Assembly: GCA_964594215.1 (NCBI GenBank)
Contig: CAZQLN010000003.1
Location: forward strand, 25,447 to 89,446
Direction of reading: 5' to 3'
DNA length: 64,000 bases
Source of the DNA: an uncultured Bdellovibrionales bacterium
GTDB taxonomy: Bacteria; Patescibacteriota; Minisyncoccia; Moranbacterales; UBA1568
Shown: in pieces, positions 7,892-59,371 of the stretch
How positions within the stretch are numbered: position 1 is the first letter of the stretch
Layout: each line of letters starts with the position of its first letter
Translations under genes and position numbers: made by a program
Notes under the pieces: generated by a model
The model's input: the letters and a program-made list of their open reading frames with translations, nothing else
What the model was told of the DNA's origin: nothing
Databases searched by the model: none

Positions 7892-10800
7892 ATGAAATAT
7901 ACCCTCAATTTTAAAGAACTTGGGAAGAATGATGCTCTGGTAGCGGGAGGTAAGGGAGCATCTCTTGGAGAGATGATTCGGGCTGGTATTCCTGTGCCAG
8001 ATGGGTTTGTGATTTTAGCTGATACATTTGATCTCTTTCTCAAGGAGACGGACTTGTTACAGGAAATTGAGGCTATCTTAGACGGTGTTAATCATGAAGC
8101 TATTCATACAGTAGAAGCTGCCTCTGAGAGTATTCAAGGGCTGATACTTTCACGGCCCATACCAGAAGTGATACAGAAAGAGATTCAAGAAAAATTTGCG
8201 GATCTTGGAAGTCAATATGTTGCGGTTCGTAGTAGCGCTACAGCAGAAGATGGTATCGAGCACGCCTGGGCTGGCCAACTGGATAGTTATCTTAATACCA
8301 CAGAAAGAGACTTAATAGAAAAGGTACGTAAGTGTTGGGCTTCGCTTTTTACGCCGCGAGCTATATTTTACCGTTTTGAAAAAGGGCTTCATAGTACCAA
8401 AATCTCTGTGGCCGTAGTAGTGCAGAGTATGGTCAATAGCGAAAAGTCAGGCATTGCTTTTTCAGTTCATCCAGTCACAGAGGATTATAATCAACTGATT
8501 ATTGAAGCTGGTTTTGGTTTGGGTGAGGCGATTGTATCTGGCGCAGTGACACCCGATAGTTATGTGGTAGAAAAATCACCATGGAAGATTCTTGATATAA
8601 ATATCAGTCATCAAGGAAGGGCTCTTTATCGTATTGATGGTGGCGGGAATGAGTGGCGAGACTTGGGAGAATCCTTTGGGAGTAATAAAGTATTAAATGA
8701 GGCACAAATCCAAGAGCTTTCAGATATTATTGTGCAGATTGAAAAACACTACGGTTTTCCATGTGATATTGAATGGGCTTTTGAAGACGGAAAATTCTTT
8801 ATAGTACAAAGCCGTCCAATTACTACTCTTAGTACAAAAGGAAACATAAACTTACAGAAGATAGAAAAAATCTTTTCTCGTGATTTTACGATGATCGCTC
8901 TAGAAATGGACTATCGTATGGAATACCAACGGGCTCGTCCTTGGGCTAAAGGAGAGAATCCGTATTCTCCGTACTTAGTTTTCTGGCGGAATGATGGGAC
9001 AAATAAAATTTACTTCAATTCAAAGGGAGTGGAGTGGATTCAGAGGGAGTTAGAGAAAAGAGTTCGAGAGAATAAGGATTTCCTGAAACTGGTAGAAGAA
9101 AATGTCAGGAAGGGAATTTCCTATATTAGGCCTGTTTATGAGGCGGAGAAAGCTATTGATCGAGAAAGCTTGATTCGATTTGTGGAGGAATTTATGGCGG
9201 CTTACTTCTGGATAGAGGCAATGTGGTGGATTAAGGGGATGGCTGACGAAAATCTTAAGGATATTGATTGTGCAAATATCGTGAGACTTCGAGAAGAAAC
9301 AGAGACACTTTCCGCCGCTACCGATAGAGTTATCCGTAAATCATTAGAAAAACTTTATCCGAAACTTGGTTTACTTTCAGCCATGATTTCTTTTGATGAG
9401 CTTAAAGGCGGAAATATTCCATCTGAAGAAGTACTAAGAACCAGAGATCAAGGCTTTGTTCTTATCAACAACGAAATTATCATTGATAAAAACTTTGATG
9501 ATGTTCTTAAAGAAAATGGATTGGAGTTAGTCGAGGAATCATTTCAGATGTTAGGTGAAGAATTAGAAGGACAGTCAGCTAGTAAGGGAAGGTACACTGG
9601 AAGAGTAGTGAGAGTAATGGGACATAACGACTTTGAAAAAGTTCAGGAAGGAGATGTATTAGTTTCACCAATGACTATGGTGGACTTTCTTCCTGTTATG
9701 AAAATAGCAGGAGCTTTTGTGACTGATGAAGGCGGAGCCCTCTGTCACGCTGCTATTGTGGCGCGTGAACTTGATAAGCCTTGTATTATAGGTACCAAGG
9801 TAGCTACGCAAGTATTTAAAGATGGAGACCTTATAGAGGTGGATGCTGATAATGGTGTGGTGAGGATTTTGGAAAAAGCGGAGGAATTAGAGATAGGTAA
9901 CTATCAAAAACTTTTCCAGTGGCCAGGAGAGTTTTCACATTTTCTCTCGTCTTACTTTATGGCCATATACAACAAGCACAAGGCCATCTCTTTGCATGAT
10001 GGAAACATGTGGCAGAGTTTCTTGCCGTATACATCAAAGGAAAAAACGCTTAAGTTAGGATTAGCACTGTATTCTTCTAAACAAGAGTATGAGGAATTGA
10101 GAAAAGGTCTGACAGAAGGCTTTGTAGAGCTTACTGCCCACTTCAATCAGGTACTGAAAAAAGATACCCTTACAAAAGAAGAAGTGGGGGCCTTCTTTGA
10201 TCAGGCATTAGAACACTACAACTATTACTCTCAAACAGAATTTTTCTTTACCGATCTTGCGTACTCTGAAATGAATAACGTTTCACAAATTCAAAAGAAC
10301 TTTGAAACTTTTGATGAATTGAAATTACAGGGCAGAGAATACTTGAATAAAATTGCATTAGCTCCAGGTTGTTACCTTGATAGGCTCATTGAGAAAATTG
10401 CACAGCAACTGAGTTATGACATTAGTGCCCTTAAGTGTCACTCTATTAATGAGATTCTGGAGTTGTTTGATGGAAAGAGTGTGAAGTCGGACGAACTGGT
10501 AAACAGAAATCAATACTTCATGCATGGGAGAGGATCTCATGCGGAGGTGCTTACCGGGGATACAGCCTTGAGAAAAATCCGTGACTTTTTTGCAGAAGTG
10601 GCTAAAACAAATGAAGTGAAGGGGCAAATTGCTAACAAAGGCTACTATCAGGGGCGTGCAAGGGTTTTTCGATTTTCTCTTTCAGAAATTAATTTGATGG
10701 ATGAAGAGATTGAGAAAATGGAGAAAGGGGAAATACTCATAGCGGATACTACAGCACCAGAAATTATTCTTGCTTGCAAGAAGGCTGGCGCGATTGTCAC

Positions 10801-10951
10801 CAATCAAGGAGGGATGATGTCTCACGCGGCTATTGTCGCCCGTGAACTAGGTATTCCCTGTATAGTAGGGACAGGGCATATAACAGAAATAGTGAAGACG
10901 GGAGATTTGTTAGAAGTAGATGCTGATAATGGGGTAGTAAGAATTTTATAA
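7892..10951 (+). CDS. PEP-utilizing-enzyme family protein, rifampin-phosphotransferase/PEP-synthase-like: N-terminal PPDK_N ATP-grasp domain plus two tandem (helical domain + phosphohistidine swivel domain) modules; no PEP-utilizers_C TIM barrel
   Basis: PPDK_N-like N-terminus (…VAVRSSATAEDG…, …CDIEWAFEDGKFFIVQSRPIT…). Two swivel motifs GGALCHAAIVARELDKPCIIGT and GGMMSHAAIVARELGIPCIVGT, each preceded by roughly 270 aa of helical region. Confidence 0.75.
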   Translation: MKYTLNFKELGKNDALVAGGKGASLGEMIRAGIPVPDGFVILADTFDLFLKETDLLQEIEAILDGVNHEAIHTVEAASESIQGLILSRPIPEVIQKEIQEKFADLGSQYVAVRSSATAEDGIEHAWAGQLDSYLNTTERDLIEKVRKCWASLFTPRAIFYRFEKGLHSTKISVAVVVQSMVNSEKSGIAFSVHPVTEDYNQLIIEAGFGLGEAIVSGAVTPDSYVVEKSPWKILDINISHQGRALYRIDGGGNEWRDLGESFGSNKVLNEAQIQELSDIIVQIEKHYGFPCDIEWAFEDGKFFIVQSRPITTLSTKGNINLQKIEKIFSRDFTMIALEMDYRMEYQRARPWAKGENPYSPYLVFWRNDGTNKIYFNSKGVEWIQRELEKRVRENKDFLKLVEENVRKGISYIRPVYEAEKAIDRESLIRFVEEFMAAYFWIEAMWWIKGMADENLKDIDCANIVRLREETETLSAATDRVIRKSLEKLYPKLGLLSAMISFDELKGGNIPSEEVLRTRDQGFVLINNEIIIDKNFDDVLKENGLELVEESFQMLGEELEGQSASKGRYTGRVVRVMGHNDFEKVQEGDVLVSPMTMVDFLPVMKIAGAFVTDEGGALCHAAIVARELDKPCIIGTKVATQVFKDGDLIEVDADNGVVRILEKAEELEIGNYQKLFQWPGEFSHFLSSYFMAIYNKHKAISLHDGNMWQSFLPYTSKEKTLKLGLALYSSKQEYEELRKGLTEGFVELTAHFNQVLKKDTLTKEEVGAFFDQALEHYNYYSQTEFFFTDLAYSEMNNVSQIQKNFETFDELKLQGREYLNKIALAPGCYLDRLIEKIAQQLSYDISALKCHSINEILELFDGKSVKSDELVNRNQYFMHGRGSHAEVLTGDTALRKIRDFFAEVAKTNEVKGQIANKGYYQGRARVFRFSLSEINLMDEEIEKMEKGEILIADTTAPEIILACKKAGAIVTNQGGMMSHAAIVARELGIPCIVGTGHITEIVKTGDLLEVDADNGVVRIL

Positions 10952-10957
10952 AATACT

Positions 10958-12058
10958 ATGAGTAAGCGACCAGAAGATTACAAAAAGTTTTTTACAGCAG
11001 AATGTGAGATTACTTGTTTGCATTGTGATTTTCTCATGCGTCAGAGCCCACTCGCTGCTGCAGACTTGCTGGCTTTCAATAAGGGCTTAGAGTTTCATGT
11101 TTTCTTGCGCAAGGATAAAGAATACCGTTGTGCTGAAGAAGGGATCGAGCTTTTCTTTGATCAAGAACGGTATGAGATTTTTCTGAGAGATTTCCAGGCC
11201 TATGCAGATGAGGCTCTGAGTGTTTTTGTACCAAAGTGGAGCAAAATTCCGACAACTCTTTCCAAAGAAGAATTTATTGAAGCAGCAAATTTTCTCGGCA
11301 AATTGTGGTATTTCTATGGTTTTACAGAGTTTCCTTTTATTGATAAAGCCTATGAAAAAGCCAAAGCAGAGAGTAATGCAGAAGTCCAGAAACGACTAGA
11401 AGATTTTGGGCAGTTTAAATTCACAGGCCGTGAAGTATTGAATGCTTTTTGGTTTGAGGGTGGTCCGATACCGAACATCCTCCTCGGTGTTTCCCAGATG
11501 TTTCTTAAAGATGATGATGCCAAGTTTCTCTTTCTTGCTGAGCTTACAGCGTTGTTTGATGGATGGCGCCCAACTGAGGAATTAGTGAAAGAGCGGAGAG
11601 AATACTATGGTATGAATGTCACGGACGGCGTAGCGGAAGTATTGGGCTTTACACAAGCCAAAGAACTATACGTACAATTTACCCGAGTACCAGATGATTT
11701 GGTAATAAAAGGCGTGACTGCCAATAAAGGAAAGGTCACCGGAAGGGTAATTATCGCCCCTATGCTCAATGACCATGGAGCCATTGCTCTGCTTGATGCT
11801 AAAATGAAGCAAGGAGATATCTTGGTAGCAGAAAGTACAAGTCCAGATTTGATGTCCTTGTGTCGTAAGGCATCGGCCATAGTAGCTGATCAAGGGGGAC
11901 TGCTCTCTCATGCTGCAATTGTGTCTCGGGAACTTGGTGTACCTTGTGTGATCCAGGCGGAGGTTGCTACTCGGAGATTGAAAGAAGGGGACCTGGTAGA
12001 GGTGGATGCGGATAAAGGTTTCGTTACTATTTTAGAAAGGATAGAAGAAGGCATATAA
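10958..12058 (+). CDS. standalone (helical domain + PEP-utilizing-enzyme swivel phosphohistidine domain) protein; third module paralogous to those in the upstream gene
   Basis: C-terminal GGLLSHAAIVSRELGVPCVIQ. N-terminal region shares blocks with the upstream modules (WYFYGFTEFPFIDKAY vs YNYYSQTEFFFTDLAY; FKFTGREVLNAF vs LKLQGREYLNKI). Confidence 0.7.
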   Translation: MSKRPEDYKKFFTAECEITCLHCDFLMRQSPLAAADLLAFNKGLEFHVFLRKDKEYRCAEEGIELFFDQERYEIFLRDFQAYADEALSVFVPKWSKIPTTLSKEEFIEAANFLGKLWYFYGFTEFPFIDKAYEKAKAESNAEVQKRLEDFGQFKFTGREVLNAFWFEGGPIPNILLGVSQMFLKDDDAKFLFLAELTALFDGWRPTEELVKERREYYGMNVTDGVAEVLGFTQAKELYVQFTRVPDDLVIKGVTANKGKVTGRVIIAPMLNDHGAIALLDAKMKQGDILVAESTSPDLMSLCRKASAIVADQGGLLSHAAIVSRELGVPCVIQAEVATRRLKEGDLVEVDADKGFVTILERIEEGI

Positions 12059-12146: not shown

Positions 12147-12590
12147 TTACTTCCTCCACTTATCCAGTATTTCGATGATACTCGACAGTGACTGCTCGAT
12201 GTGGTTGGCGCAGTCATGGTAGGCTTGTTCGCCTTGCTGCCAGGGATTGGGCACGCCACCACCGAGAATGATGATGGGCGTGTGACCCTCTCGCATTGCA
12301 GTGAGAGCGTTCGCTTCTTCTTCGCCGACCGTTAGGATGAGTTGGTACTCACTGAGATCAAGTGTCCCGACGAAACGGGACACGTGGCCGTCGGCATTAA
12401 TGCCACGATCACGAAGCTCCTTTTGGGAAAATTCTGCCATGGGCTGTCCTGCAGCAGATTCTCTGAGGCCAGCGCTTTCCACCGTGACATTGGCAAAGCC
12501 GATTATTTCTCCCAGCTCATGACGAAGCATACGCTCCATCATCGGTGATCGACAGGTGTTGCCGAGACAAACGCAAAGAACTTTGTGCAC
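12147..12590 (-). CDS. low-molecular-weight protein-tyrosine phosphatase / arsenate-reductase family
   Basis: N-terminal P-loop VLCVCLGNTCRSPMME (C-x5-R); size 147 aa. Confidence 0.8.
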   Translation of the reverse strand: MHKVLCVCLGNTCRSPMMERMLRHELGEIIGFANVTVESAGLRESAAGQPMAEFSQKELRDRGINADGHVSRFVGTLDLSEYQLILTVGEEEANALTAMREGHTPIIILGGGVPNPWQQGEQAYHDCANHIEQSLSSIIEILDKWRK

Positions 12591-29881: not shown

Positions 29882-30295
29882 ATGAGGAATGGACGAACTT
29901 GGGTGTATCTTTTGGGGTTTTTAATTTTGCTTTCCTCGGCAATCCTTTTCTATAGGATCTTTATCCTAAAGGACTATATCATTACTGCTCAGAGCCAGTG
30001 TAACCCTAACCTAGAAACCTGTTTTGTTATTGATTGTACTGAAGGTGATTTAGAGTGTGAAGGACCTACTTACTATAGGAATATTAAAGTGAGAGCAGTT
30101 GACACAACTTGTGGTTTAGAAGATCCGAGGTGTTTGTATGATTTTGCTTGTAGTGAAGAGTCAGGAAATTGCGAAATTGAGTACTGTGATGATTCGAATG
30201 TTCTTGAAGAAGAACGTTGTAGCGGTGAGGAGGATAAAGAAGTTCAGGAACTAGAAGACACCGGTGCTACAGAAGAGATTGAAACAGTATTATGA
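29882..30295 (+). CDS. membrane-anchored, Cys-rich (11 Cys) acidic extracytoplasmic protein, paralog A
   Basis: N-terminal TM; CNPNLETCFVIDCTEGDLECEGPTYY…CEIEYCDD; similar to 32766..33362. Confidence 0.6.
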   Translation: MRNGRTWVYLLGFLILLSSAILFYRIFILKDYIITAQSQCNPNLETCFVIDCTEGDLECEGPTYYRNIKVRAVDTTCGLEDPRCLYDFACSEESGNCEIEYCDDSNVLEEERCSGEEDKEVQELEDTGATEEIETVL

Positions 30296-31068
30296 ATGAA
30301 TTAGTAAATCACGATAAAAATGGCGTTTATAGCAAGTTTTTTGATGCTATAACAGAAGTAAAGGCTCGCTGGGAAAATGATGATTTAAGAAAGGCTGTCG
30401 AAGAAAGGTTGGGAGGTGATATACCAGAAGTTTTTCAACAAGGTCCAAAGGCAACTATTGTAAGGTATATTGCTAGTCCTAATGTAGAGTCCTATTACTT
30501 TCATGATTTAGCAGAGTTAAGTGGCTTGGATCCTTTATATCTTGAGTTTACACAAGATAAGTTTGTAGCTAAAAATCCCTCAAAGTATCATTTGTGTAAA
30601 CTATCCTCAGTAAGTGAGGAAAATAGTGGTGAAAAGTCCGTAAAGGTTGTAGATTTTAATAAGTATGAGGGTAAGCTCCTGAGTGAGATTGAGACATTGA
30701 ATGGAAAAAGGTTAGTTCAATTCCACCATGATCTTTTCACTAAATCTAGTGCCGGAATACAGAAGCCTTTTATATACGATTTCTCAGAATGGTTTCTAAA
30801 GCATAGGAATAAGAATGGTTTCTACTATTTCGACTATCTTGCACTTTTTGTTTGTCATGGCGTCCTTTTTGAAAATTTCTTAGGAGACAAAGAAGAGTCT
30901 AATTTCACAGATGAAATAGTTAAGCCTGCTTTTGAGGAAATAGAGAGAGTTTTCGGTGTTAAACCTCTTATTTTTCCTTTACAGCCTATCAAAGTTGAGG
31001 AACATAAAAATTGGTATGGGTATAAGGACGCTTTACTCGAAGAAATTAGAGAAGAAATAACAAAATAG
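30292..31068 (+). CDS. hypothetical cytoplasmic protein
   Basis: 258-aa ORF overlapping the upstream stop by 4 nt; no motif recognised. Confidence 0.5.
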   Translation: MNELVNHDKNGVYSKFFDAITEVKARWENDDLRKAVEERLGGDIPEVFQQGPKATIVRYIASPNVESYYFHDLAELSGLDPLYLEFTQDKFVAKNPSKYHLCKLSSVSEENSGEKSVKVVDFNKYEGKLLSEIETLNGKRLVQFHHDLFTKSSAGIQKPFIYDFSEWFLKHRNKNGFYYFDYLALFVCHGVLFENFLGDKEESNFTDEIVKPAFEEIERVFGVKPLIFPLQPIKVEEHKNWYGYKDALLEEIREEITK

Positions 31069-46299: not shown

Positions 46300-47466
46300 A
46301 TGCCAAGTTTTGAACGACCAAGGCTGACTGAAGTCATACCTATAAATGAAGAGGGTATCAGTAAATTAAGAGATACCTTTGAAAACTATTTTTCTCAAAT
46401 AAACAGTGAGACCGGAGTAAGCGTATTTTTGGAGGCTGTAAAAGAAGTTAACTCAATTGAGATAAGTGCTAAGAATCAAGAGTACGTTAAAGGATGGCTT
46501 GCTCAAATCCTTGAGAAGTCTTACTATTTAGCATTTATAGCTGGTATATCTACAGAAGTCTTTTCTAAGGAACTTCAAACAGGTTTAACTTTAGTGCCAA
46601 TAATTCCTGACTATCTGAATGAAAGTCACGAAAGAGAGCTCAAAAGAGAGCCTGCTTTTATGGAGAGTATAGAGGGCACCCTAGAAAGATTTTCATATAT
46701 TGAAAAGTTGCCACAGATATTTAGAAAAAAAGTGCAAGCTATAATAATAGGAGGATCAATGAGTTACGGACCATTTTTTAATATTCGAAAGAATTTAGAC
46801 AAAACAGGAAGTTCAGATATTGATGCTATCTTTGTGATGAAAGAAGATTTTTTGGATGACGATAACTGGGAATTATTTAACACTTCTTCTCAATTCTTTG
46901 AAGAAGATAAAATCGAATTTCAAAAAAGAAAAAAAGATTTTAAAACACTCTACGTGCAAAATCAGGCAGATGTATTTAGTCAACGCTTCAATGTTCCGGG
47001 ACGTGATTTTAATATGAGCGTACATTTCTTTACTCTTGAGAATCTTGAGAAGATGTGCAATTCTGAACTCAAGGATGATTTAAAGTTGAATCTTGATAGG
47101 GTTAAAATTTTAAGAGATTTTAAGGCTAGAAAATTTGAACACAAAGATTGCAATCAGTTAAACTTTTTTGGAGAAATATTTTCATACCCCATTCCAGAAC
47201 AGAAGCCAGTTGATGGTGGGTACATTGCAAATTTACCCAGTTACATGATTAGGGGAGGTCATCTGTATCCAGGAATCTATCAGAATATAATATCACCAGA
47301 ATTTTCAGTCTTTTGTGATAATGGAGGAGAGGTGGGAGATTTGGTAAAGGTCTTTCAACAAAATATTCAAAATAGACTTGATGATGAAAATAATGTAAAA
47401 GAGGGAGCTGGTTCTATAAAGGAATCTCACTTCAGAAACCATTTTTTTGCTTTAGGAAGATACTAA
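46300..47466 (+). CDS. pol-beta-superfamily nucleotidyltransferase-fold protein of unknown specificity
   Basis: IIGGSMSYGPFFNIRKNLDKTGSSDIDAIFV matches hG[GS]-x(n)-DhDh; third acidic cluster FLDDDNWE; about 140-aa N-terminal extension. Confidence 0.5.
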   Translation: MPSFERPRLTEVIPINEEGISKLRDTFENYFSQINSETGVSVFLEAVKEVNSIEISAKNQEYVKGWLAQILEKSYYLAFIAGISTEVFSKELQTGLTLVPIIPDYLNESHERELKREPAFMESIEGTLERFSYIEKLPQIFRKKVQAIIIGGSMSYGPFFNIRKNLDKTGSSDIDAIFVMKEDFLDDDNWELFNTSSQFFEEDKIEFQKRKKDFKTLYVQNQADVFSQRFNVPGRDFNMSVHFFTLENLEKMCNSELKDDLKLNLDRVKILRDFKARKFEHKDCNQLNFFGEIFSYPIPEQKPVDGGYIANLPSYMIRGGHLYPGIYQNIISPEFSVFCDNGGEVGDLVKVFQQNIQNRLDDENNVKEGAGSIKESHFRNHFFALGRY

Positions 47467-49469: not shown

Positions 49470-49542
49470 GGGTGTGTAGCTCAGTTGGTAGAGCAGTGGC
49501 CTTTTAAGCCAACGGTCGCAGGTTCGAGCCCTGCCACACCCA
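49470..49542 (+). tRNA. tRNA-Lys (anticodon UUU); 3' CCA not encoded
   Basis: Manual fold: perfect 7-bp acceptor GGGTGTG/CACACCC, D-arm GCTC-AGTTGGTA-GAGC, anticodon loop CTTTTAA, 5-nt variable loop, T-arm GCAGG-TTCGAGC-CCTGC, discriminator A. Confidence 0.85.
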
Positions 49543-52953: not shown

Positions 52954-52982
52954 AAGAGTGTAACCCCTAAAAGCTTTAAAAA

Positions 52983-53003
52983 CCCCTTTAAAGAGGGGTT
53001 TTT
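52983..53003 (+). terminator. putative intrinsic terminator after rseP
   Basis: cccctt-taaa-gagggg hairpin followed by TTTTT. Confidence 0.5.
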
Positions 53004-53022
53004 GTATACTCAGCACGGACTA

Positions 53023-53051
53023 TTGACATTTTGGCTAAAATTTGTTATTAT
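53023..53051 (+). promoter_or_regulatory. sigma70-type promoter TTGACA-N17-TATTAT
   Basis: Exact -35; AGGAGG at 53078-53083 precedes ATG 53090. Confidence 0.5.
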
Positions 53052-53089
53052 CTACTGTTATATTTGTAATTTGTATAAGGAGGAAACTT

Positions 53090-53725
53090 ATGAATTATTT
53101 TGATCTGAAGCGTTTATTCAAGGCAAAGTTTTGGACCATGTTCCTGTTTGGACTCTTGGTCGGCACGATAGCTTTTTTTGTGACCATTCTGACGTTGCCG
53201 TATTATCGAGCATCATCTGATTTTTTGGTAGTCCAGACAAGTCAAAACAATCAGGACTTCTATACTCAATTCAAATCTTCTGAGTATCTCGGAAAAGTTT
53301 TGGGCGAAGCTGTCTATTCCGAAAGTTTTATCAACGCGGTCATTGGTACCGGTAAGATCAGTGGTGAAAGTTTACCATTCGATAAGAAGACTCGTTTGGA
53401 TAAATGGAAAGACATGGTGGTGGTCAAGAAGAATCTTGAACTTGGAGTGATCCAAATTTCCGTCGCTGGTAATGATCAGCGCGAAGTAGGGAAAATCATG
53501 GAAGGTATCTCGGATGTTTTGATCAACCAGAATACCCTTTTCCGTGGCGGTAACCCAGATAGTGTTCAGATTCGAGTTCTCTCAGGACCCATTCTTGAGA
53601 AAACTCCTACGATGCTAACTCTTATCAAGATTTTAGGCACAAGCTTTGTAGTTGGTTTCCTCCTCTCACTCCTTTATTTTTTCGGAAAGTCAGAAAAGAG
53701 TACCATGAGACTTTTCGAAGATTAA
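53090..53725 (+). CDS. short Wzz/polysaccharide co-polymerase-like membrane protein (paralog of 21427..22047)
   Basis: N- and C-terminal TMs; post-TM1 block LPYYRASSDFLVVQTSQNN. Start reassigned from track 53042 to the RBS-supported ATG 53090. Confidence 0.55.
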   Translation: MNYFDLKRLFKAKFWTMFLFGLLVGTIAFFVTILTLPYYRASSDFLVVQTSQNNQDFYTQFKSSEYLGKVLGEAVYSESFINAVIGTGKISGESLPFDKKTRLDKWKDMVVVKKNLELGVIQISVAGNDQREVGKIMEGISDVLINQNTLFRGGNPDSVQIRVLSGPILEKTPTMLTLIKILGTSFVVGFLLSLLYFFGKSEKSTMRLFED

Positions 53726-53858
53726 GTTCTACTTTCTTGTCTTCCTCCTGAATATTTCTGGGGGAAGCAAGAGGGCTGGAATCCAGTTCTCGTAAGGAAA
53801 TGTACCTATCCAACTGAATATATCAACAATCAAACTTTAGTCTAAAGGAGACTGAATC

Positions 53859-54725
53859 ATGAAGTATACCTTCTCAACCGCTCTTGTGGCGGTGTCGCTC
53901 GCTTTTGCTTCCCAGGCCTCGGCCAAGGAAGTGAAGCCGGCAGAGATGGAGGTTCGCGGCCTTCACGCCGTCGAAGCTCCCTGGCAACCAGAGAGTCTGT
54001 CGCTTGACACGCGTCAAGTGCAGGCACTCCAGGTAATTACTATCCCACTTTCGGAGGCAACAAAGAAAGAATGGGCAAAAGTTAACCGTGATAAACGTGG
54101 TATTCGAATGATCGTCGATGGAGAAGATGGCAAGCCTCGGCTTGTTGGACGACCCGTCATCAAGGCGACGTTTCGCGTATTGCTTATGAAGGATGGTGAC
54201 ATTCTTCCTATGAGCGAAGCCGAAATGATTACCACTGGCGGTGAGGCCATCAATATCCTCTTGCCGCCTGACGTTGATTTCCGTGGAACGACAGCCTTTG
54301 TGTTGGCGGATCGCGGACGTCATGCACTTACTCTTGCGGGTGAGATTATCGATCTCGACAAGGGAAAGAAACGACTTATTACGTCCAAGTTGCCCGATCA
54401 AGTTGCCACTTCGGTGGTGGAAGACACGGCTTTGAGTGTACGGGGTGAGCCTTCTGGGTTGTACCTCGATATGCTGGAAGCCACATTTAGCGAACACGCT
54501 GTTCTCAACAACAGTCTTCGCTATTCCGGTCTTCCCGGCACTTTTCTTTCCAAGGATATGACCCGTTACCCTTCGGTGGCGGCTCTCTATACGAGGGAAG
54601 ACACAGTCGGCGATCGCTTGATTACCTGCGGCAATGGAACACTGGATCCGTCCATGTTCACTGGTATTGGAGCCCTTGTTAAAGTGGGCTCCAACCTCAT
54701 CGTCGCACTCAAGAAACGTTGCTAG
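53859..54725 (+). CDS. secreted hypothetical protein, GC-rich (about 52-55%)
   Basis: Signal peptide MKYTFSTALVAVSLAFASQASA; GGAG 8 nt upstream; composition unlike its flanks. Confidence 0.6.
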   Translation: MKYTFSTALVAVSLAFASQASAKEVKPAEMEVRGLHAVEAPWQPESLSLDTRQVQALQVITIPLSEATKKEWAKVNRDKRGIRMIVDGEDGKPRLVGRPVIKATFRVLLMKDGDILPMSEAEMITTGGEAINILLPPDVDFRGTTAFVLADRGRHALTLAGEIIDLDKGKKRLITSKLPDQVATSVVEDTALSVRGEPSGLYLDMLEATFSEHAVLNNSLRYSGLPGTFLSKDMTRYPSVAALYTREDTVGDRLITCGNGTLDPSMFTGIGALVKVGSNLIVALKKRC

Positions 54726-54828
54726 GAGAAATTCGATGACCTGGCAGCACGGCAACCCTATCGATCAATTCTGGTCGAGACGGTTGCTCTGTGCGCCGTC
54801 TCGACTTCCATCAAGGAGTGTAAGTATC

Positions 54829-56187
54829 ATGAAACGTTTTCTCCTGACCCTTGGGGTCGCCCTCTCGGTGTCGATGACTGGATTCATTTCCAGTTCGGCA
54901 TCGGCGGCGACCACTCGAAATGCCGAAGGGTATGTCGAGTGGAGCCGGGTGGGCGCCGCTACCATGAACTTGTTTCAGGGTGGTGGTCCACGCCTTGATC
55001 TGGCACGCGTTTATGCGATGCGCCAGATGGGTGTGAGCGAACCTGAAATTGCTCAAGTCCTCCTGGACTTTCATGCAAAAAACTTCGAGGAAGGCGTTAT
55101 CCGCAAGGGTGACAAGTTCAAGACGATGTCTTTTGCTAACAAGAAAGAGGTCAAGGTGATGCATAACGTCATCTTGACTGCAGACGGCGAATACAGGGTT
55201 TGGCGGATGCGCACCAAAAGCGGACTGACTATCACGTTCGTTGAGAAGTGTGCCAATGTCGGCATCGAGGAAACTCCGCCGGCACCGCCTGCCAAAGAAA
55301 ACCCTCCGCCGGTAGAGGAAACTCCGCCGGCACCTCCGCCTCCCTTTGTTCCGCCGACGACGGTCGAAGAAGGCCAGCGTCTCTGCAATAAGCTTCGGGT
55401 CAACGGTGTTCTCGGTTTCGAATGGGAACCGCTCATCCATGGCTCGGACTCGCGTAGCTTGTATGCTGCTGCGGGTATCTATTGCATGCGTCTGACCAAG
55501 TACGGTCAAATCGGTTTCGGTCTCGGTGGCCAAGCTGCCTTCTACGGTGGCAAGGTCAAACATGTTGGTCGTTTCCAGGGCCATCTCTATGGCGCAGGAC
55601 CGGCAGTCATGATCGTGAACGACAAAGGTCTCGACTACGAAGGCAAGTTGATGATCATGGACTACACATCAAGCTACCGCCAAGGTGGCTACCGTTCCCA
55701 TGAGCATCGCACGGTGATTGGGATGAGCCTGGCTCATAACGACTACCGTGGCCGGATTGACGGCACTGGCAAGCCAGAAACGCAGTACTTCGCCTTGTGC
55801 GGAGTGCCGATTGGTGGTCATACCACGGAAACGTGGAATGGTCAGAAAATCGGCAACGGCTCGAAGCTCGGGCTTGTCTGCAACGCTGGCCTTCGGAAGT
55901 ATCTGACGGAGGGCAAGAAGTGGAATCCGTATATTCAAGGCGGACTCCTGGGTGAAGCTCGCAAGGGTGGAGCCGACTTCTTGTCTGGCAGTCTGCGTCT
56001 TGGTGCTTCGAATAAGCATCGGACGATCGGTTGTGGAGCGGGTATCGACGTGAACCTGCTTAAGGGCGGTATCCATCCTGGCCTCGGCTGTTGGGTGGAT
56101 GTTGCTGGCATGGTACGCCACAAGCGTACGGCCTCACGGGCGGCAGCTATTGCAGCTGACCAGCTTCCGGCAACCAAGAACGAATAA
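54829..56187 (+). CDS. secreted hypothetical protein with proline-rich linker (EETPPAPPAKENPPPVEETPPAPPPPFVPP), GC-rich
   Basis: AAGGAG then ATG 54829; signal peptide MKRFLLTLGVALSVSMTGFISSSASA. The track ORF from 54634 is an upstream extension. Confidence 0.6.
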   Translation: MKRFLLTLGVALSVSMTGFISSSASAATTRNAEGYVEWSRVGAATMNLFQGGGPRLDLARVYAMRQMGVSEPEIAQVLLDFHAKNFEEGVIRKGDKFKTMSFANKKEVKVMHNVILTADGEYRVWRMRTKSGLTITFVEKCANVGIEETPPAPPAKENPPPVEETPPAPPPPFVPPTTVEEGQRLCNKLRVNGVLGFEWEPLIHGSDSRSLYAAAGIYCMRLTKYGQIGFGLGGQAAFYGGKVKHVGRFQGHLYGAGPAVMIVNDKGLDYEGKLMIMDYTSSYRQGGYRSHEHRTVIGMSLAHNDYRGRIDGTGKPETQYFALCGVPIGGHTTETWNGQKIGNGSKLGLVCNAGLRKYLTEGKKWNPYIQGGLLGEARKGGADFLSGSLRLGASNKHRTIGCGAGIDVNLLKGGIHPGLGCWVDVAGMVRHKRTASRAAAIAADQLPATKNE

Positions 56188-56416
56188 CCGGGACTAACGT
56201 CCCAAAGTGATGAACCTCACACTGTTGGCAAATAGCTCCGCAAGGACTATAACGAAAAACGGTTAGCATAGGGACAAGACCCTATGTCAAGGTATAGCGG
56301 ACGCTATACTGGAGCAGACTTTCAGGCAACTGAGAGCGAAGCGACCCGGCCACGAGGTAAAAGGATTGTTGGTGTGTACAGCCAATGAAACTTCATTGCG
56401 ATAAACATTTTCCTCA

Positions 56417-56449
56417 AGGTCAGCCTCTGCTCACGCATGCTGACCTTTT
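56417..56449 (+). terminator. putative intrinsic terminator
   Basis: 8-bp stem aggtcagc/gctgacct (14-nt loop) then TTTT. Confidence 0.45.
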
Positions 56450-56452
56450 CAT

Positions 56453-56481
56453 TTGACTTTTTATCATTTTAGGTGTATAAT
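56453..56481 (+). promoter_or_regulatory. sigma70-type promoter TTGACT-N17-TATAAT
   Basis: Direct reading; 33 nt before ATG 56515. Confidence 0.5.
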
Positions 56482-56514
56482 ATATTTTAGTTTAAAATGA
56501 TTTTTTAGGATTCT

Positions 56515-57267
56515 ATGCCACAAATAAAGCGGATAATATACTTCACAGCCATTTTGGTCTTGGCTGTGGTCGCTTATACTAAGACTTTTGGTGACCTTAT
56601 AGCAAAACCTTTTGAACAGGAGGTTTGTTGGCAGTTACCAGTTTTTGGAGAACAAGGAGTACCTCATGGTGCTCTTTGGAAACAGGAAACCGTGAGAGAA
56701 GAACATGCACCCGAGGGATATCATGCAGCTGTAGCTTGGATGAATGTGGTAACTACGTGGCCATGTACAGAGGTCTCTGGACCAGCATTAGCAGAAGTAC
56801 GGGCAATACGAATTATAGAAAAAAAAGCTGATGAAGAAAGAGTGGTTTTAAATCAGGTTTTTGATACAGAGAAACGGACTGGTTTTAGTGGGGCTCTTTT
56901 TCAGCGACAACCTTTTTGGTTTGGTCCAGGTGAGGGAAAACTCAGTGGCGGGGTAGCTAGTTTCACTAAGAATGGTCTCGTTATTAATGCGCGGCAAATT
57001 CCTCACAATATCTACCATGGTTGGTCTGATCCACGTATTCATATTGATAATGATGCGCAGTACATTGTAGAGGCGGAAGTTCGGGTAACAGGCACGGCAC
57101 GTTTACAATTAGGCATGGACTATTGGCGGGATCTTGAGAGTGATTACAGTGGCTATGACCCTAATTGTCAGACAAGTAATAACTGCGAAGCCTGGATAGG
57201 GGATTGGCAAGGTGATACAAATGGTCAATTTATCACTCTACGTTCACCGAAGCAATTTCTTCAGTAA
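56515..57267 (+). CDS. membrane-anchored hypothetical extracytoplasmic protein (low-GC)
   Basis: N-terminal TM IIYFTAILVLAVVAY; 250 aa; no motif recognised. Confidence 0.55.
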   Translation: MPQIKRIIYFTAILVLAVVAYTKTFGDLIAKPFEQEVCWQLPVFGEQGVPHGALWKQETVREEHAPEGYHAAVAWMNVVTTWPCTEVSGPALAEVRAIRIIEKKADEERVVLNQVFDTEKRTGFSGALFQRQPFWFGPGEGKLSGGVASFTKNGLVINARQIPHNIYHGWSDPRIHIDNDAQYIVEAEVRVTGTARLQLGMDYWRDLESDYSGYDPNCQTSNNCEAWIGDWQGDTNGQFITLRSPKQFLQ

Positions 57268-57274
57268 CTGATAA

Positions 57275-57300
57275 ATAGCCCGAAATAGGGCTATTTTTGT
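57275..57300 (+). terminator. intrinsic terminator
   Basis: 7-bp stem atagccc/gggctat, 6-nt loop, then TTTTTGTTTTTG. Confidence 0.7.
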
Positions 57301-57325
57301 TTTTGATAAAGGCATTATTGGACTA

Positions 57326-57354
57326 TTGACAAAAATGCCTTAGGGGTGTATAAT
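57326..57354 (+). promoter_or_regulatory. consensus sigma70 promoter TTGACA-N17-TATAAT
   Basis: Exact consensus in both hexamers; about 120-nt leader to ATG 57479. Confidence 0.55.
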
Positions 57355-57478
57355 GGCTCTTCAAGGTGCTATTCGAGTATCTTGGAGGGTTCCACCTGGG
57401 ACTCAGCAAACCTGGGTTTCCAGGAGTATGATAAGGTTGTTCGACACCTTTCTCCAAAGTCGAACATGGAGAAATACC

Positions 57479-57901
57479 ATGAAGAAGATGTACCTTTCAA
57501 TTGTTGCTATCGCGGCCTCGCTTGCCATAACGCCTGCATTCGCTGAACCGACGACGGTCAGCGTCGATTCACCTCTCGGTGTTTCGGCCGTTTCTGATGC
57601 ATCGGTCATCGCCATGCCGGCTATTCCCGGTGGCAATGTCGACTATGCCAGGAACCCTGATTTTTTCGCAAACGCCTCGCTGTGCGTTTCGAATCCTGAC
57701 GGTAACTGGGCGATTAGGCGCGATGGGACGCTCGACACCTTCAATCCTGAACGTCGGGCAGCGTGCGCACCGATCGTCAATGGTCAGGCTGCCGTATCTG
57801 GCAACTTCGTCCGTGGCGCCACGCCGTTCATTATGCGCGACGGCCGCATTCTGGCCTGGGCTGGTCGTGATCGGCTCAAGGGGTTGCCGCCTATCCGGTA
57901 A
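57479..57901 (+). CDS. small secreted hypothetical protein, GC-rich (about 58%)
   Basis: GGAG then ATG 57479; signal peptide MKKMYLSIVAIAASLAITPAFA. The track ORF from 57353 begins inside the -10 hexamer. Confidence 0.55.
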   Translation: MKKMYLSIVAIAASLAITPAFAEPTTVSVDSPLGVSAVSDASVIAMPAIPGGNVDYARNPDFFANASLCVSNPDGNWAIRRDGTLDTFNPERRAACAPIVNGQAAVSGNFVRGATPFIMRDGRILAWAGRDRLKGLPPIR

Positions 57902-57924
57902 ATCCGGACAATCGGCACACGAGT

Positions 57925-57980
57925 CTCGGGAGGAAATGTTTGTACTTGTACACGCATTTCCTCCTGGGCTTTTTCTTTTT
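57925..57980 (+). terminator. intrinsic terminator (9-bp stem ggaggaaat/atttcctcc, then tgggcTTTTTcTTTTT)
   Basis: Direct reading. A second weaker hairpin (agactctc…gagggtct + T6, 57981-58016) overlaps the stop of the convergent gene. Confidence 0.5.
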
Positions 57981-57997
57981 AGACTCTCTTTACTTAC

Positions 57998-59371
57998 TTA
58001 GAGGGTCTTTTTTGTGCCTTGTTTTTGGGTGAGCGCCAGAAGAGCTCCAAAGAGGACAAAGTAAATCCATTCCACAGGAGTGTTTTTGAAAATATTGTCT
58101 GTAAAACCGGCTATAAAAAGACAACCAGTGAAGAGAAGCATAATAAGGCTAAGATCCTGGATGAGTGGTTCAGAAGTGGTTTTTTTGATACGAAGAAGTA
58201 GATAGCTGAGCCAACCATAAAAGAACAGTAGCACGCCGAGACCGAGGATTCCGCCCTCAATAAAGAATTTAACGAAGTCATTGTGAGCGTCATTGGAGCC
58301 GGCAACGGAGTCTCTCACGGTGCTTGCGAAGAGAGGAAAAGTGTTAATACCAGAACCGAGGAGGACACGATCGTCTTGGAATGTTTTGGTAATAACATCA
58401 CTCCACAGTGTCTTGCGCCAGACAATGGAACTGTCAGGGTCAGGCGAGAAACTTTCGGCTACACGGTCTTGGAAAGCGGGTGATATGAAGAGGAGAAAAA
58501 GTGGAAGAATAATGAGAGGAATAAGGAGGACTCGGTATCTGAAGAAGGCTAGACCAAGAACAAAGAGAAAGGTGATGAGCCAGGCTACACGGGCAAAGGT
58601 GAGAAAGAGAAGGAGTAGAAGTAGGAAGAGTATCCCGTAGAGAGGAAGAGAGAATAAGCTTTTGTTTTTTGGTGCAACGCTTCTTTGGTAGATGAGCCAG
58701 ACAATAAGAAGGGCAAATAGATAGAGGGAAAGGGTATTCGGATGAGCAAAAGTACCAAAAATACGAGGGATAGAGACATCAGCGTCACTGAAACCAATAT
58801 GGTTGAAGTATTGGTAAAGGGCGACAAGGCCAGGGATGACAGCTGATAATAAAAGAGCAAGGAGAAGTTTTTTAAAATCTTTCGGGGTACGGACAAAGAG
58901 AAATCCCAAAAGCCCAATAACGTAGAGATCGAAGATGCGAATGATTTCTGTGAGACTGGTAGTCCAGGAAAGAGAATAAGCAAGAGTTACTGTACCCCAA
59001 AGAATAAGGAGAAGAAATGGACCAGTGAGAAGAAGGTGCTTCTGTCTTTCTCGGTAGAGGTAGATAAGGTAGAGACCGAGAAGCCCTATAGCTAAACCAA
59101 GAATCTGTGAGAGTGAGAGATTATAATCACGGACCGTGATAGTGACATACTGGGAGGAGTAGTCGAGTGACATACGGGCAATGATAAGAAGGCTGAGGAA
59201 AGTGAGGGGTCGCTCACGAAAAAGAATGAAAAAACCAATTCCACCAAAAATGACTATAGGGATAGCTAAATTGAAATCAAGGGCAATACCAAAAGTAAGC
59301 CCGATGAAAATAAGGAGAGTAATAATAATTGCGCTTCTGGGAATAGTGAAGGGTTCTTTTATTTGTGCCAT
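57998..59371 (-). CDS. O-antigen ligase/polymerase family (Wzy_C-like) polytopic membrane protein
   Basis: About 12 TMs with large loop; …FGTFAHPNTLSLYL… motif region; glycan-locus context. Confidence 0.65.
   Translation of the reverse strand: MAQIKEPFTIPRSAIIITLLIFIGLTFGIALDFNLAIPIVIFGGIGFFILFRERPLTFLSLLIIARMSLDYSSQYVTITVRDYNLSLSQILGLAIGLLGLYLIYLYRERQKHLLLTGPFLLLILWGTVTLAYSLSWTTSLTEIIRIFDLYVIGLLGFLFVRTPKDFKKLLLALLLSAVIPGLVALYQYFNHIGFSDADVSIPRIFGTFAHPNTLSLYLFALLIVWLIYQRSVAPKNKSLFSLPLYGILFLLLLLLFLTFARVAWLITFLFVLGLAFFRYRVLLIPLIILPLFLLFISPAFQDRVAESFSPDPDSSIVWRKTLWSDVITKTFQDDRVLLGSGINTFPLFASTVRDSVAGSNDAHNDFVKFFIEGGILGLGVLLFFYGWLSYLLLRIKKTTSEPLIQDLSLIMLLFTGCLFIAGFTDNIFKNTPVEWIYFVLFGALLALTQKQGTKKTL

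Follow-up and report, generated by a model that had tools for sequence, protein, structure and literature searches.

In this work we have analysed a stretch of 64,000 nucleotides (nt; hereafter the window) from contig CAZQLN010000003.1 of assembly GCA_964594215.1, which contains an island of GC-rich genes for secreted proteins. The island is bordered on the left by a conserved gene for a Wzz-like chain-length determinant (53090-53725, plus strand; Pfam Wzz, E 7.7e-5, just under the curated cut-off) and on the right by a conserved gene for a Wzy_C or O-antigen-ligase-like membrane protein (57998-59371, minus strand; Pfam Wzy_C, E 2.7e-12). The only open reading frames (ORFs) of the interval are four on the plus strand, here called A to D, so that no integrase is found among them. 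A (53859-54725) codes for a 288-amino-acid (aa) secreted protein of a lineage-specific family, B (54829-56187) for a protein of 452 aa, C (56515-57267) for an N-terminally anchored protein of 250 aa, and D (57479-57901) for a secreted protein of 140 aa with two conserved cysteines. Our data suggest that A, B and D form a cell-envelope cassette whose alleles are probably exchanged at this one site among Moranbacteria lineages.

The three genes for secreted proteins stand out by their base composition, as a first-pass annotation made from the letters of the sequence had already described. The G+C content (GC) of A, B and D is 0.525, 0.559 and 0.582 and the G+C content at their third codon positions (GC3) is 0.536, 0.607 and 0.610, that is, 0.53-0.58 and 0.54-0.61 against a window mean GC of 0.432, and C is a low-GC gene (GC 0.436, GC3 0.315), again as annotated. 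In bins of 1 kilobase (kb) the background has a GC of 0.33-0.47 and the bins at 54-56 kb reach 0.525-0.552, and the maximum over 1400 nt is 0.559 inside the island versus 0.471 elsewhere in the window. About 55 other ORFs of the window have a GC3 of 0.27-0.49, a small phosphatase gene and one short ORF being the exceptions, and seven flanking genes fall within 0.33-0.43. The immediate flanking genes are not enriched in GC, and the Wzz-like gene is the lowest of them at 0.395. The GC changes in sharp steps at 53726-53858 and 57902-57997. Furthermore, A, B and D have 0.31 C and 0.28 G at third positions, compared with background values of 0.19 and 0.20; NCG codons are enriched 3-4 fold and the codons AGA, TTA and CTA are absent. 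Because C and G at third positions both rise across all amino acids, this is not a tRNA-type preference, and the codon usage of the three genes is the signature of a GC-rich genome and not of selective codon preference. Both codon usage and sliding-window GC agree with the earlier proposal that the island is compositionally foreign.

A survey seeded with the Wzz-like neighbour gene found the locus in 15 species genomes (as defined by GTDB) and in further metagenome contigs; individual loci are designated below by L numbers. Where the label of one of the 15 genomes is meaningful, it reads Candidatus Moranbacteria or Moraniibacteriota (Patescibacteria group). All loci that cover the interval share one arrangement of genes, consisting of a BNR lipoprotein gene, frr, rseP, the Wzz-like gene, the interval, the Wzy_C and methyltransferase genes (both on the minus strand) and a glycosyltransferase gene (plus strand). 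The interval from Wzz to Wzy_C measures 3.9-6.1 kb across these loci and always starts with a gene in the A position, which in L019 is a truncated ORF; next come a B-like gene (470-630 aa) and one to three genes for small secreted proteins. The cassette is present in all 13 loci that span the whole interval, and at least 15 species carry it at this locus, with RseP proteins 49-92% identical to that of the window. The homology of B across the group is supported by tblastn and a profile search, and that of A by hhalign comparison with the gene-1 proteins of distant loci (probability 99.4%, E 1.4e-21). Among 5.8 billion (5.8e9) proteins we found five clusters for B, six for A and ten for D, and the B profile retrieved 135 representative clusters among 1.84 billion proteins; the named family members come from Moranbacteria, and so does the sole named cluster of D. 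The cassette would be specific to Moranbacteria, its protein families being found in this context only there.

The comparison of the cassette with the neighbouring RseP shows that A-B alleles have been replaced between Moranbacteria lineages. The window and L005 have RseP proteins 92% identical, with only 39% identity in B and 32% in A, and in the pair L012 and L015 the corresponding values are 84%, 29% and 23%. The opposite is found in L001 and L006, in which RseP is 80% identical, B 93% and A 82%, and the pair L013 and L017 gives 78%, 71% and 69%. At the DNA level, the flanks of the window and L005 are about 80% identical, similarity drops to background at about 53790 and is back at about 57971, and the D gene of the window is replaced in L005 by a different D-like paralogue. 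When L006 is aligned to L001, identity is 70-78% in the flanks, 82-88% in A, 92-97% in B and 70-75% in C; since A-B is 82-97% identical yet C shows the divergence of the flanks, the A-B module has moved and C has stayed.

We have also shown that each allele is under purifying selection. B of the window differs from that of a 98% relative, L023, at 65 sites, 54 of which (83%) are at codon position 3 of the plus frame, and 55 of the changes are synonymous and 10 nonsynonymous, which settles the coding strand of B, indicates purifying selection and excludes local hypermutation. In our tally of the synonymous differences about 37 have G or C in the window and A or T in L023, and about 14 are the reverse; this asymmetry implies that at least one of the two lineages is off compositional equilibrium, and it fits the decay of an imported GC-rich allele. 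In fact, the GC excess is shared by the whole allele family and is not peculiar to the window copy: A, B and D of the relatives have a GC of 0.60-0.68 and a GC3 of up to 0.85 with flanks at 0.40-0.47, an excess stronger than in the window, and the highest GC3 values (0.74-0.88) belong to small secreted genes located behind strong promoters and structured leaders. Across the 15 genomes flank GC3 ranges from 0.36 to 0.73 and B GC3 from 0.54 to 0.74, with a correlation of r = -0.19 and a slope of -0.11, and in the GC-rich genome of L010 B lies below its flanks in GC3.

A repeat search revealed no repeats in the island or at its borders, no attachment (att) sites and no template of a diversity-generating retroelement, the only tRNA gene lies at 49470-49542, 4.3 kb upstream of the island, and no B relatives were found in viral contigs or plasmids. 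An integrative element was rejected on the basis of the missing repeats, integrase and adjacent tRNA gene. A diversity-generating retroelement was likewise discarded, as there is no direct repeat in 53859-57901 and close alleles differ mainly at synonymous sites.

The B protein begins with a signal peptide (residues 1-26), which is followed by an alpha/beta N-domain (approximately residues 36-147, nt 54934-55269), a proline-rich linker (residues 148-178, nt 55270-55362), a predicted 12-stranded beta-barrel (residues 188-424, nt 55390-56100) and a C-terminal helix (residues 425-443). A linker of this kind had been noted in one of the GC-rich ORFs, and a barrel or porin-like fold had been suggested for the C-terminal part of this one; both are borne out, the latter by the predicted model. 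The mean predicted local distance difference test score (pLDDT) of this model is 72.8, with values of 80-92 in the barrel and of 40-57 in a short helix (179-185) ahead of it. The barrel consists of twelve long antiparallel strands, most of which alternate hydrophobic and polar faces, as membrane barrels do. B has no match in Pfam at E <= 1 and none in NCBIfam or PHROG. Six of ten remote members of the B family carry a LysM domain above the Pfam cut-off ahead of the N-domain, and the Pfam scan found no LysM in the window B. According to the model and these relatives, B would represent a new LysM/N-domain beta-barrel family without a Pfam model.

Another protein, P0105, has an N-terminus homologous to the N-domain of B (hhalign probability 98%, E 1.6e-13), including a K-C-x-N-V motif. 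P0105 is a 392-aa protein encoded at L049 4001-5179, on a contig of 67% GC, in which the B-type N-domain precedes an OmpW-family barrel; a protein of the same cluster is located on a contig of 5 megabases, and the N-domain part of P0105 has no Pfam match. The N-domain would thus seem to be a module that bacteria with large, GC-rich genomes combine with different barrels, and its presence in such a barrel protein would fit a capture of the module from such organisms.

As for the other products, no match to A, C or D was found in Pfam, NCBIfam or PHROG, and searches of PDB sequences with the profiles of A, B, C and D gave matches at chance level only. An AxA motif is seen by eye in A, B and D, in line with the cleavable signal peptides that the first-pass annotation had assigned to all three GC-rich ORFs. 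The structure model of A has a pLDDT of 47.8, too poor for a fold search. The homologues of A in distant relatives bear a lipoprotein-type signal, their genes often overlapping the B-like gene at its start. D belongs to a divergent group of small secreted products of the cassette; the D-, E- and F-like proteins and others of about 210 aa have in common a C..W..CAPI..AW core, which was recognized by eye without statistics. C behaves differently. It is absent from L046, and its homologues occur in 23 metagenome loci, 22 of them without cassette genes in the DNA covered and the remaining one, L023, a near-identical copy of the island; a metagenome scan seeded with C yielded mostly unrelated contexts and few new copies of the cassette. 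The C family is widespread without A, B and D and is not specific to the cassette, so we infer that C is a resident gene of low GC which, in one subclade, splits the cassette into two GC-rich modules.

These modules would be transcribed from near-consensus signals. A promoter scan located TTGACA-N17-TATTAT with an upstream TG ahead of the Wzz-like gene (53023-53051, plus strand; 11 of 12 positions), TTGACT-N17-TATAAT ahead of C (56453-56481, plus strand; 11 of 12, with TTGAC and GTATAAT invariant in five loci) and TTGACA-N17-TATAAT ahead of D (57326-57354, plus strand; 12 of 12, conserved in relatives), and the last two lie where they had been annotated. As the scan detected no consensus promoter between the Wzz-like gene and A and none of its own for B, and both genes have AAGGAG ribosome-binding sites, the promoter at 53023-53051 probably drives a Wzz-A-B transcript. 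The intrinsic terminators that had been placed in the low-GC intergenic regions were also recovered. The one after C (57273-57306, plus strand; 57273-57296 in the scan) was found by the scan, and those after B and D were read by eye, their loops being too long for it (> 8 nt for B). After B, a terminator-like hairpin (56418-56455, plus strand) is formed by GGTCAGC...GCTGACC followed by TTTTCATTT, and would end a transcript containing A, B and the structured RNA described below as E1. Between the convergent D and Wzy_C genes, a hairpin with a T-run (57924-57980), GGAGGAAATG...CATTTCCTCC, was read from the sequence without assignment to either strand.

Two structured RNAs accompany the cassette, and Rfam gave no match in the region even at E <= 1. 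E1 (56222-56408, plus strand) occupies the 3' untranslated region of B, between its stop codon and the terminator, and consists of a GNRA-capped hairpin and a short helix that encloses hairpins; the third hairpin was recognized by eye and is not part of the model. It is 93% identical to its counterpart in L005, where housekeeping genes are about 80% identical, and has a folding z-score of -4.1. The covariance model recovers it in eight loci, always between B and C and in the subclade that contains C, and it was not found outside this subclade; compensatory changes affect nine of the 18 modelled pairs, and 94% of the alignment cells pair versus 34-54% when the partners are slid.

E2 (57356-57478, plus strand) is a structured 5' leader of D of about 120 nt, with a stem-loop at the 5' end, where the transcript is predicted to start (at about 57361), a CCUGG...CCAGG hairpin and another hairpin before the GGAG ribosome-binding site. 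It is 85% identical to L005 although the downstream D-like gene there is a different paralogue, and its folding z-score is -3.8. Its covariance model is strong in six loci and weak ahead of D in L010 and L046; 92.9% of the cells pair, compared with 41-53% after sliding of the partners, and both bases have changed in 22 pairs, in an alignment that was fitted to the model. In Escherichia coli the ompA mRNA is stabilised by a 5'-terminal hairpin. By analogy, the E2 leader probably supports high expression of D. The CCUGG...CCAGG hairpin of the model also has weak partial matches in the spacers between Wzz and A (L046 2667-2701, L003 3983-4023 and L005 10643-10759), and the same spacer of the window (53726-53858) contains CTGGAATCCAG, which may be a regulatory hairpin shared by both modules or be due to chance.

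Some other features of the window and of the surveyed loci deserve mention. The Wzz-like protein of the window (53090-53725) is 99.5% identical to that of L005 (10001-10633), and the DNA is 82-91% identical; the frr and rseP products of the two are 92% identical, below this value. Such a protein identity despite the DNA divergence indicates unusually strong purifying selection on this gene that borders the cassette. Third-party annotation (TPA) metagenome-assembled genomes (MAGs) named "uncultured Bdellovibrionales bacterium" have a Moranbacteria-type locus in L005, L008, L009, L011, L013-L015, L017 and L019, and the DNA of L005 is about 80% identical to the window; the Bdellovibrionales labels of MAGs of this type appear to be wrong. 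With respect to composition, a second GC-rich outlier is located at 12147-12590 (minus strand; GC 0.534, GC3 0.568) amid plus-strand genes and codes for a low-molecular-weight phosphotyrosine phosphatase (Pfam LMWPc, E 6.6e-21), an enzyme type that is frequently a partner of Wzz/Wzc-type systems. Two AT-rich genes at 30292-31068 and 46300-47466 (GC 0.345 and 0.336, GC3 0.27-0.29) are outliers in the direction opposite to the island, and the second one has no Pfam match. Finally, three diverged copies of a 153-nt segment (9723-9875, 10800-10952 and 11886-12038; 66-72% identical, about 1080 nt apart) span a 1019-aa PEP-utilising-like gene and the next gene, suggesting repeated or duplicated domains.

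Taken together, we propose that the cassette is a pool of cell-envelope alleles at one fixed site with surface-polysaccharide genes around it, exchanged among Moranbacteria lineages faster than it ameliorates, a reading to which we give a probability of about 0.6. Its core would be A, secreted here and a lipoprotein in distant relatives, together with B, with its signal peptide, optional LysM, conserved N-domain, proline-rich stalk and 12-stranded barrel, and one to three small disulfide-containing secreted D-like proteins. Alleles of A-B, and likewise the D module, would be replaced by homologous recombination in the conserved flanks, and the pool would keep a shared composition (GC3 of about 0.6-0.7 and GC-rich codon usage) decoupled from that of each recipient genome. 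As the genome of the window would be at the low-GC end of the group, the cassette stands out in it, and its copy may be partly ameliorated. A-B and the D-like proteins would together make up a variable structure on the cell surface, with B as a membrane barrel tied to peptidoglycan, D would be made for high expression by its consensus promoter and 5'-terminal hairpin leader, and frequency-dependent selection, exerted by host recognition or phage, could maintain the variation.

Several other explanations have to be weighed against this proposal. The first-pass annotation had raised the possibility of a chimeric assembly, in which Moranbacteria DNA is joined to a fragment of a GC-rich organism, and the sharp GC steps at both ends of the island could be taken in this sense, as could the MAG JAHBAT02 of a related species, whose assembly is broken in the cassette, the end of L007 and the start of L044 both lying within B. 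However, five contigs from five sequencing runs, each assembled on its own, match 52965-59135 colinearly at 99.94-100% identity and between them cover both compositional junctions, and the gene order is identical in many species; it is implausible that the same artefact with identical junctions arose in all these assemblies, which excludes the annotated doubt and leaves a chimera with practically no probability. A break like that of JAHBAT02 is expected of a locus with several alleles co-existing in the sampled population. Nor do we give any appreciable credence to the idea that the GC-rich ORFs are not genes, that the true genes are antisense or that the region is non-coding, which could be based on the long antisense ORFs (293 aa at 53874-54755 and 257 aa at 54811-55584) and on the lack of a database family match for A-D. 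Against it stand the 83% of differences between B and L023 that fall at plus-strand codon position 3 (55 of 65 synonymous), the conservation of the proteins down to 25-30% identity with signal peptides retained, and the confident barrel in the B model. The antisense ORFs are not conserved, that over A being absent from L005, and together with the third-position bias of B this agrees with their earlier dismissal as artefacts. For B this explanation can be regarded as refuted on the substitution pattern; for A and D, the case against it is protein conservation.

If this genome had recently acquired the cassette by horizontal transfer from an unrelated donor of high GC, probably a diderm, this would account for a codon usage like that of a GC-rich genome, for signal peptides and a beta-barrel that look Gram-negative and for the homology of the B N-domain to an OmpW-type protein on a 67% GC contig. 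However, at least 15 species, with RseP 49-92% identical to the window, have the cassette at this locus, none of the 13 whole-interval loci lacks it, full-length relatives of A, B and D were seen only in this synteny or in records labelled Moranbacteria, and there is no integrase, att repeat or adjacent tRNA gene, which makes this scenario very unlikely. Of the horizontal acquisition suggested at first sight, the part that stands is that lateral transfer is involved, but not as a simple acquisition by this genome; an ancient origin of the parts of B from a diderm lineage is plausible, and a recent event in this genome is not. It has also to be considered that the GC richness is intrinsic and kept in place, by codon or mRNA selection on highly expressed secreted proteins or by GC-biased gene conversion at a hot spot of recombination. 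The excess is indeed seen in nearly all lineages, the highest GC3 values are those of small secreted genes with strong promoters and structured leaders, and the locus clearly recombines. Nevertheless, there is no constant offset, as B GC3 is unrelated to flank GC3 and lies below it in L010; C has an equally strong promoter yet a GC3 of 0.32; the flanking genes, which would be expected to share conversion tracts, have no GC enrichment (the Wzz-like gene being lowest at 0.395); codons ending in G and those ending in C become more frequent for all amino acids; and the asymmetry with L023 points to decay and not to maintenance. We consider this explanation unlikely, though less so than a recent acquisition, and translational selection as the sole cause of the high GC3 is rejected by the codon-usage shift and the decoupling of B and flank GC3.

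The exchange of alleles from a common pool, as proposed here, has also some points against it. The composition of the pool could be held by selection on GC, only L010 is GC-rich among the approximately 15 genomes compared, and most family members from the profile search have no taxonomic label. Furthermore, the barrel of B comes from an AlphaFold model built from six sequences, the signal peptides and the membrane anchor of C were read by eye, and neither fold nor family is informative for A, C and D. Patescibacteria have been described as monoderm (PMC11665869; bioRxiv 10.1101/2021.05.31.446380), which raises the question of which membrane holds the barrel, and cell-wall data exist for few members of the candidate phyla radiation (CPR; PMC8871954). 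The evolutionary account is well supported, and we infer the functional one, a variable surface or host-contact structure. A more far-reaching version, which we regard as doubtful, is that Moranbacteria deploy a true outer-membrane-type barrel tether made of B and its partner lipoprotein A. This tether might be placed in an outer-membrane-like layer of their own, so far unrecognised, or its barrel might be inserted in the outer membrane of a diderm host and stapled to peptidoglycan by way of the proline-rich stalk and the LysM/N-domain, and the alleles of the cassette would then set the host range.

The cassette constitutes a defined, recurrent genomic feature of a CPR lineage and a natural system in which allele pools and amelioration can be compared. 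The membrane that holds the B barrel bears on the envelope architecture of the CPR and on the contact of these presumed epibionts with their hosts, and their hypervariability makes A, B and D candidates for determining host or phage specificity. In addition, E1 and E2, conserved structured RNAs absent from Rfam, come with the cassette.

Regarding known systems, the structure predicted for B is similar to the translocator of an autotransporter or to an outer-membrane protein tethered to peptidoglycan. B would share with the type Va autotransporters (Pfam PF03797; BrkA 3qq2, Hbp 3aeh, EspP, NalP and AIDA-I) a C-terminal 12-stranded transmembrane beta-barrel, according to the prediction. However, it does not match the Pfam autotransporter model at E <= 1 and its profile finds no PDB sequence match; its barrel stops at residue 424, after which come a helix and tail of 28 aa with the C-terminus ...LPATKNE and no terminal aromatic residue, and its N-domain of about 110 aa is not a beta-helix passenger, relatives carrying an N-terminal LysM. 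The relatives resemble intimin and invasin (inverse autotransporters) in their combination of LysM and barrel, but B has no C-terminal passenger and the order LysM-barrel-passenger is not found. With respect to OmpA, the order of domains in B is reversed, and neither OmpA_C nor SLH is present in the window B. Both OmpA and OmpM of diderm Terrabacteria (PMC10628300) tether the outer membrane to peptidoglycan, whereas the host phylum of B is reported to be without an outer membrane. In its N-terminal half B resembles the OmpW/opacity-type proteins of P0105 and its cluster, which have the same N-domain, likewise ahead of a beta-barrel, but in P0105 this barrel is of the OmpW type and the gene is on a 67% GC contig, outside this synteny.

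The O-antigen (rfb) and capsule clusters of Enterobacteria are hypervariable, compositionally atypical surface loci at a fixed site. Their anomaly is a low GC and that of the cassette a high GC, in a CPR host, and their variable genes code for sugar-synthesis enzymes, whereas A-D have no enzyme domains in the Pfam and NCBIfam scans, the glycosyltransferase, methyltransferase and Wzy_C genes being located in the conserved right flank, outside the variable interval. Nevertheless, the cassette has in common with the rfb and capsule loci a fixed site with conserved flanks, deep alleles that are incongruent with the species tree and probably pass between lineages through flank recombination, and an atypical composition, and it is likewise located beside Wzz- and Wzy-type genes.

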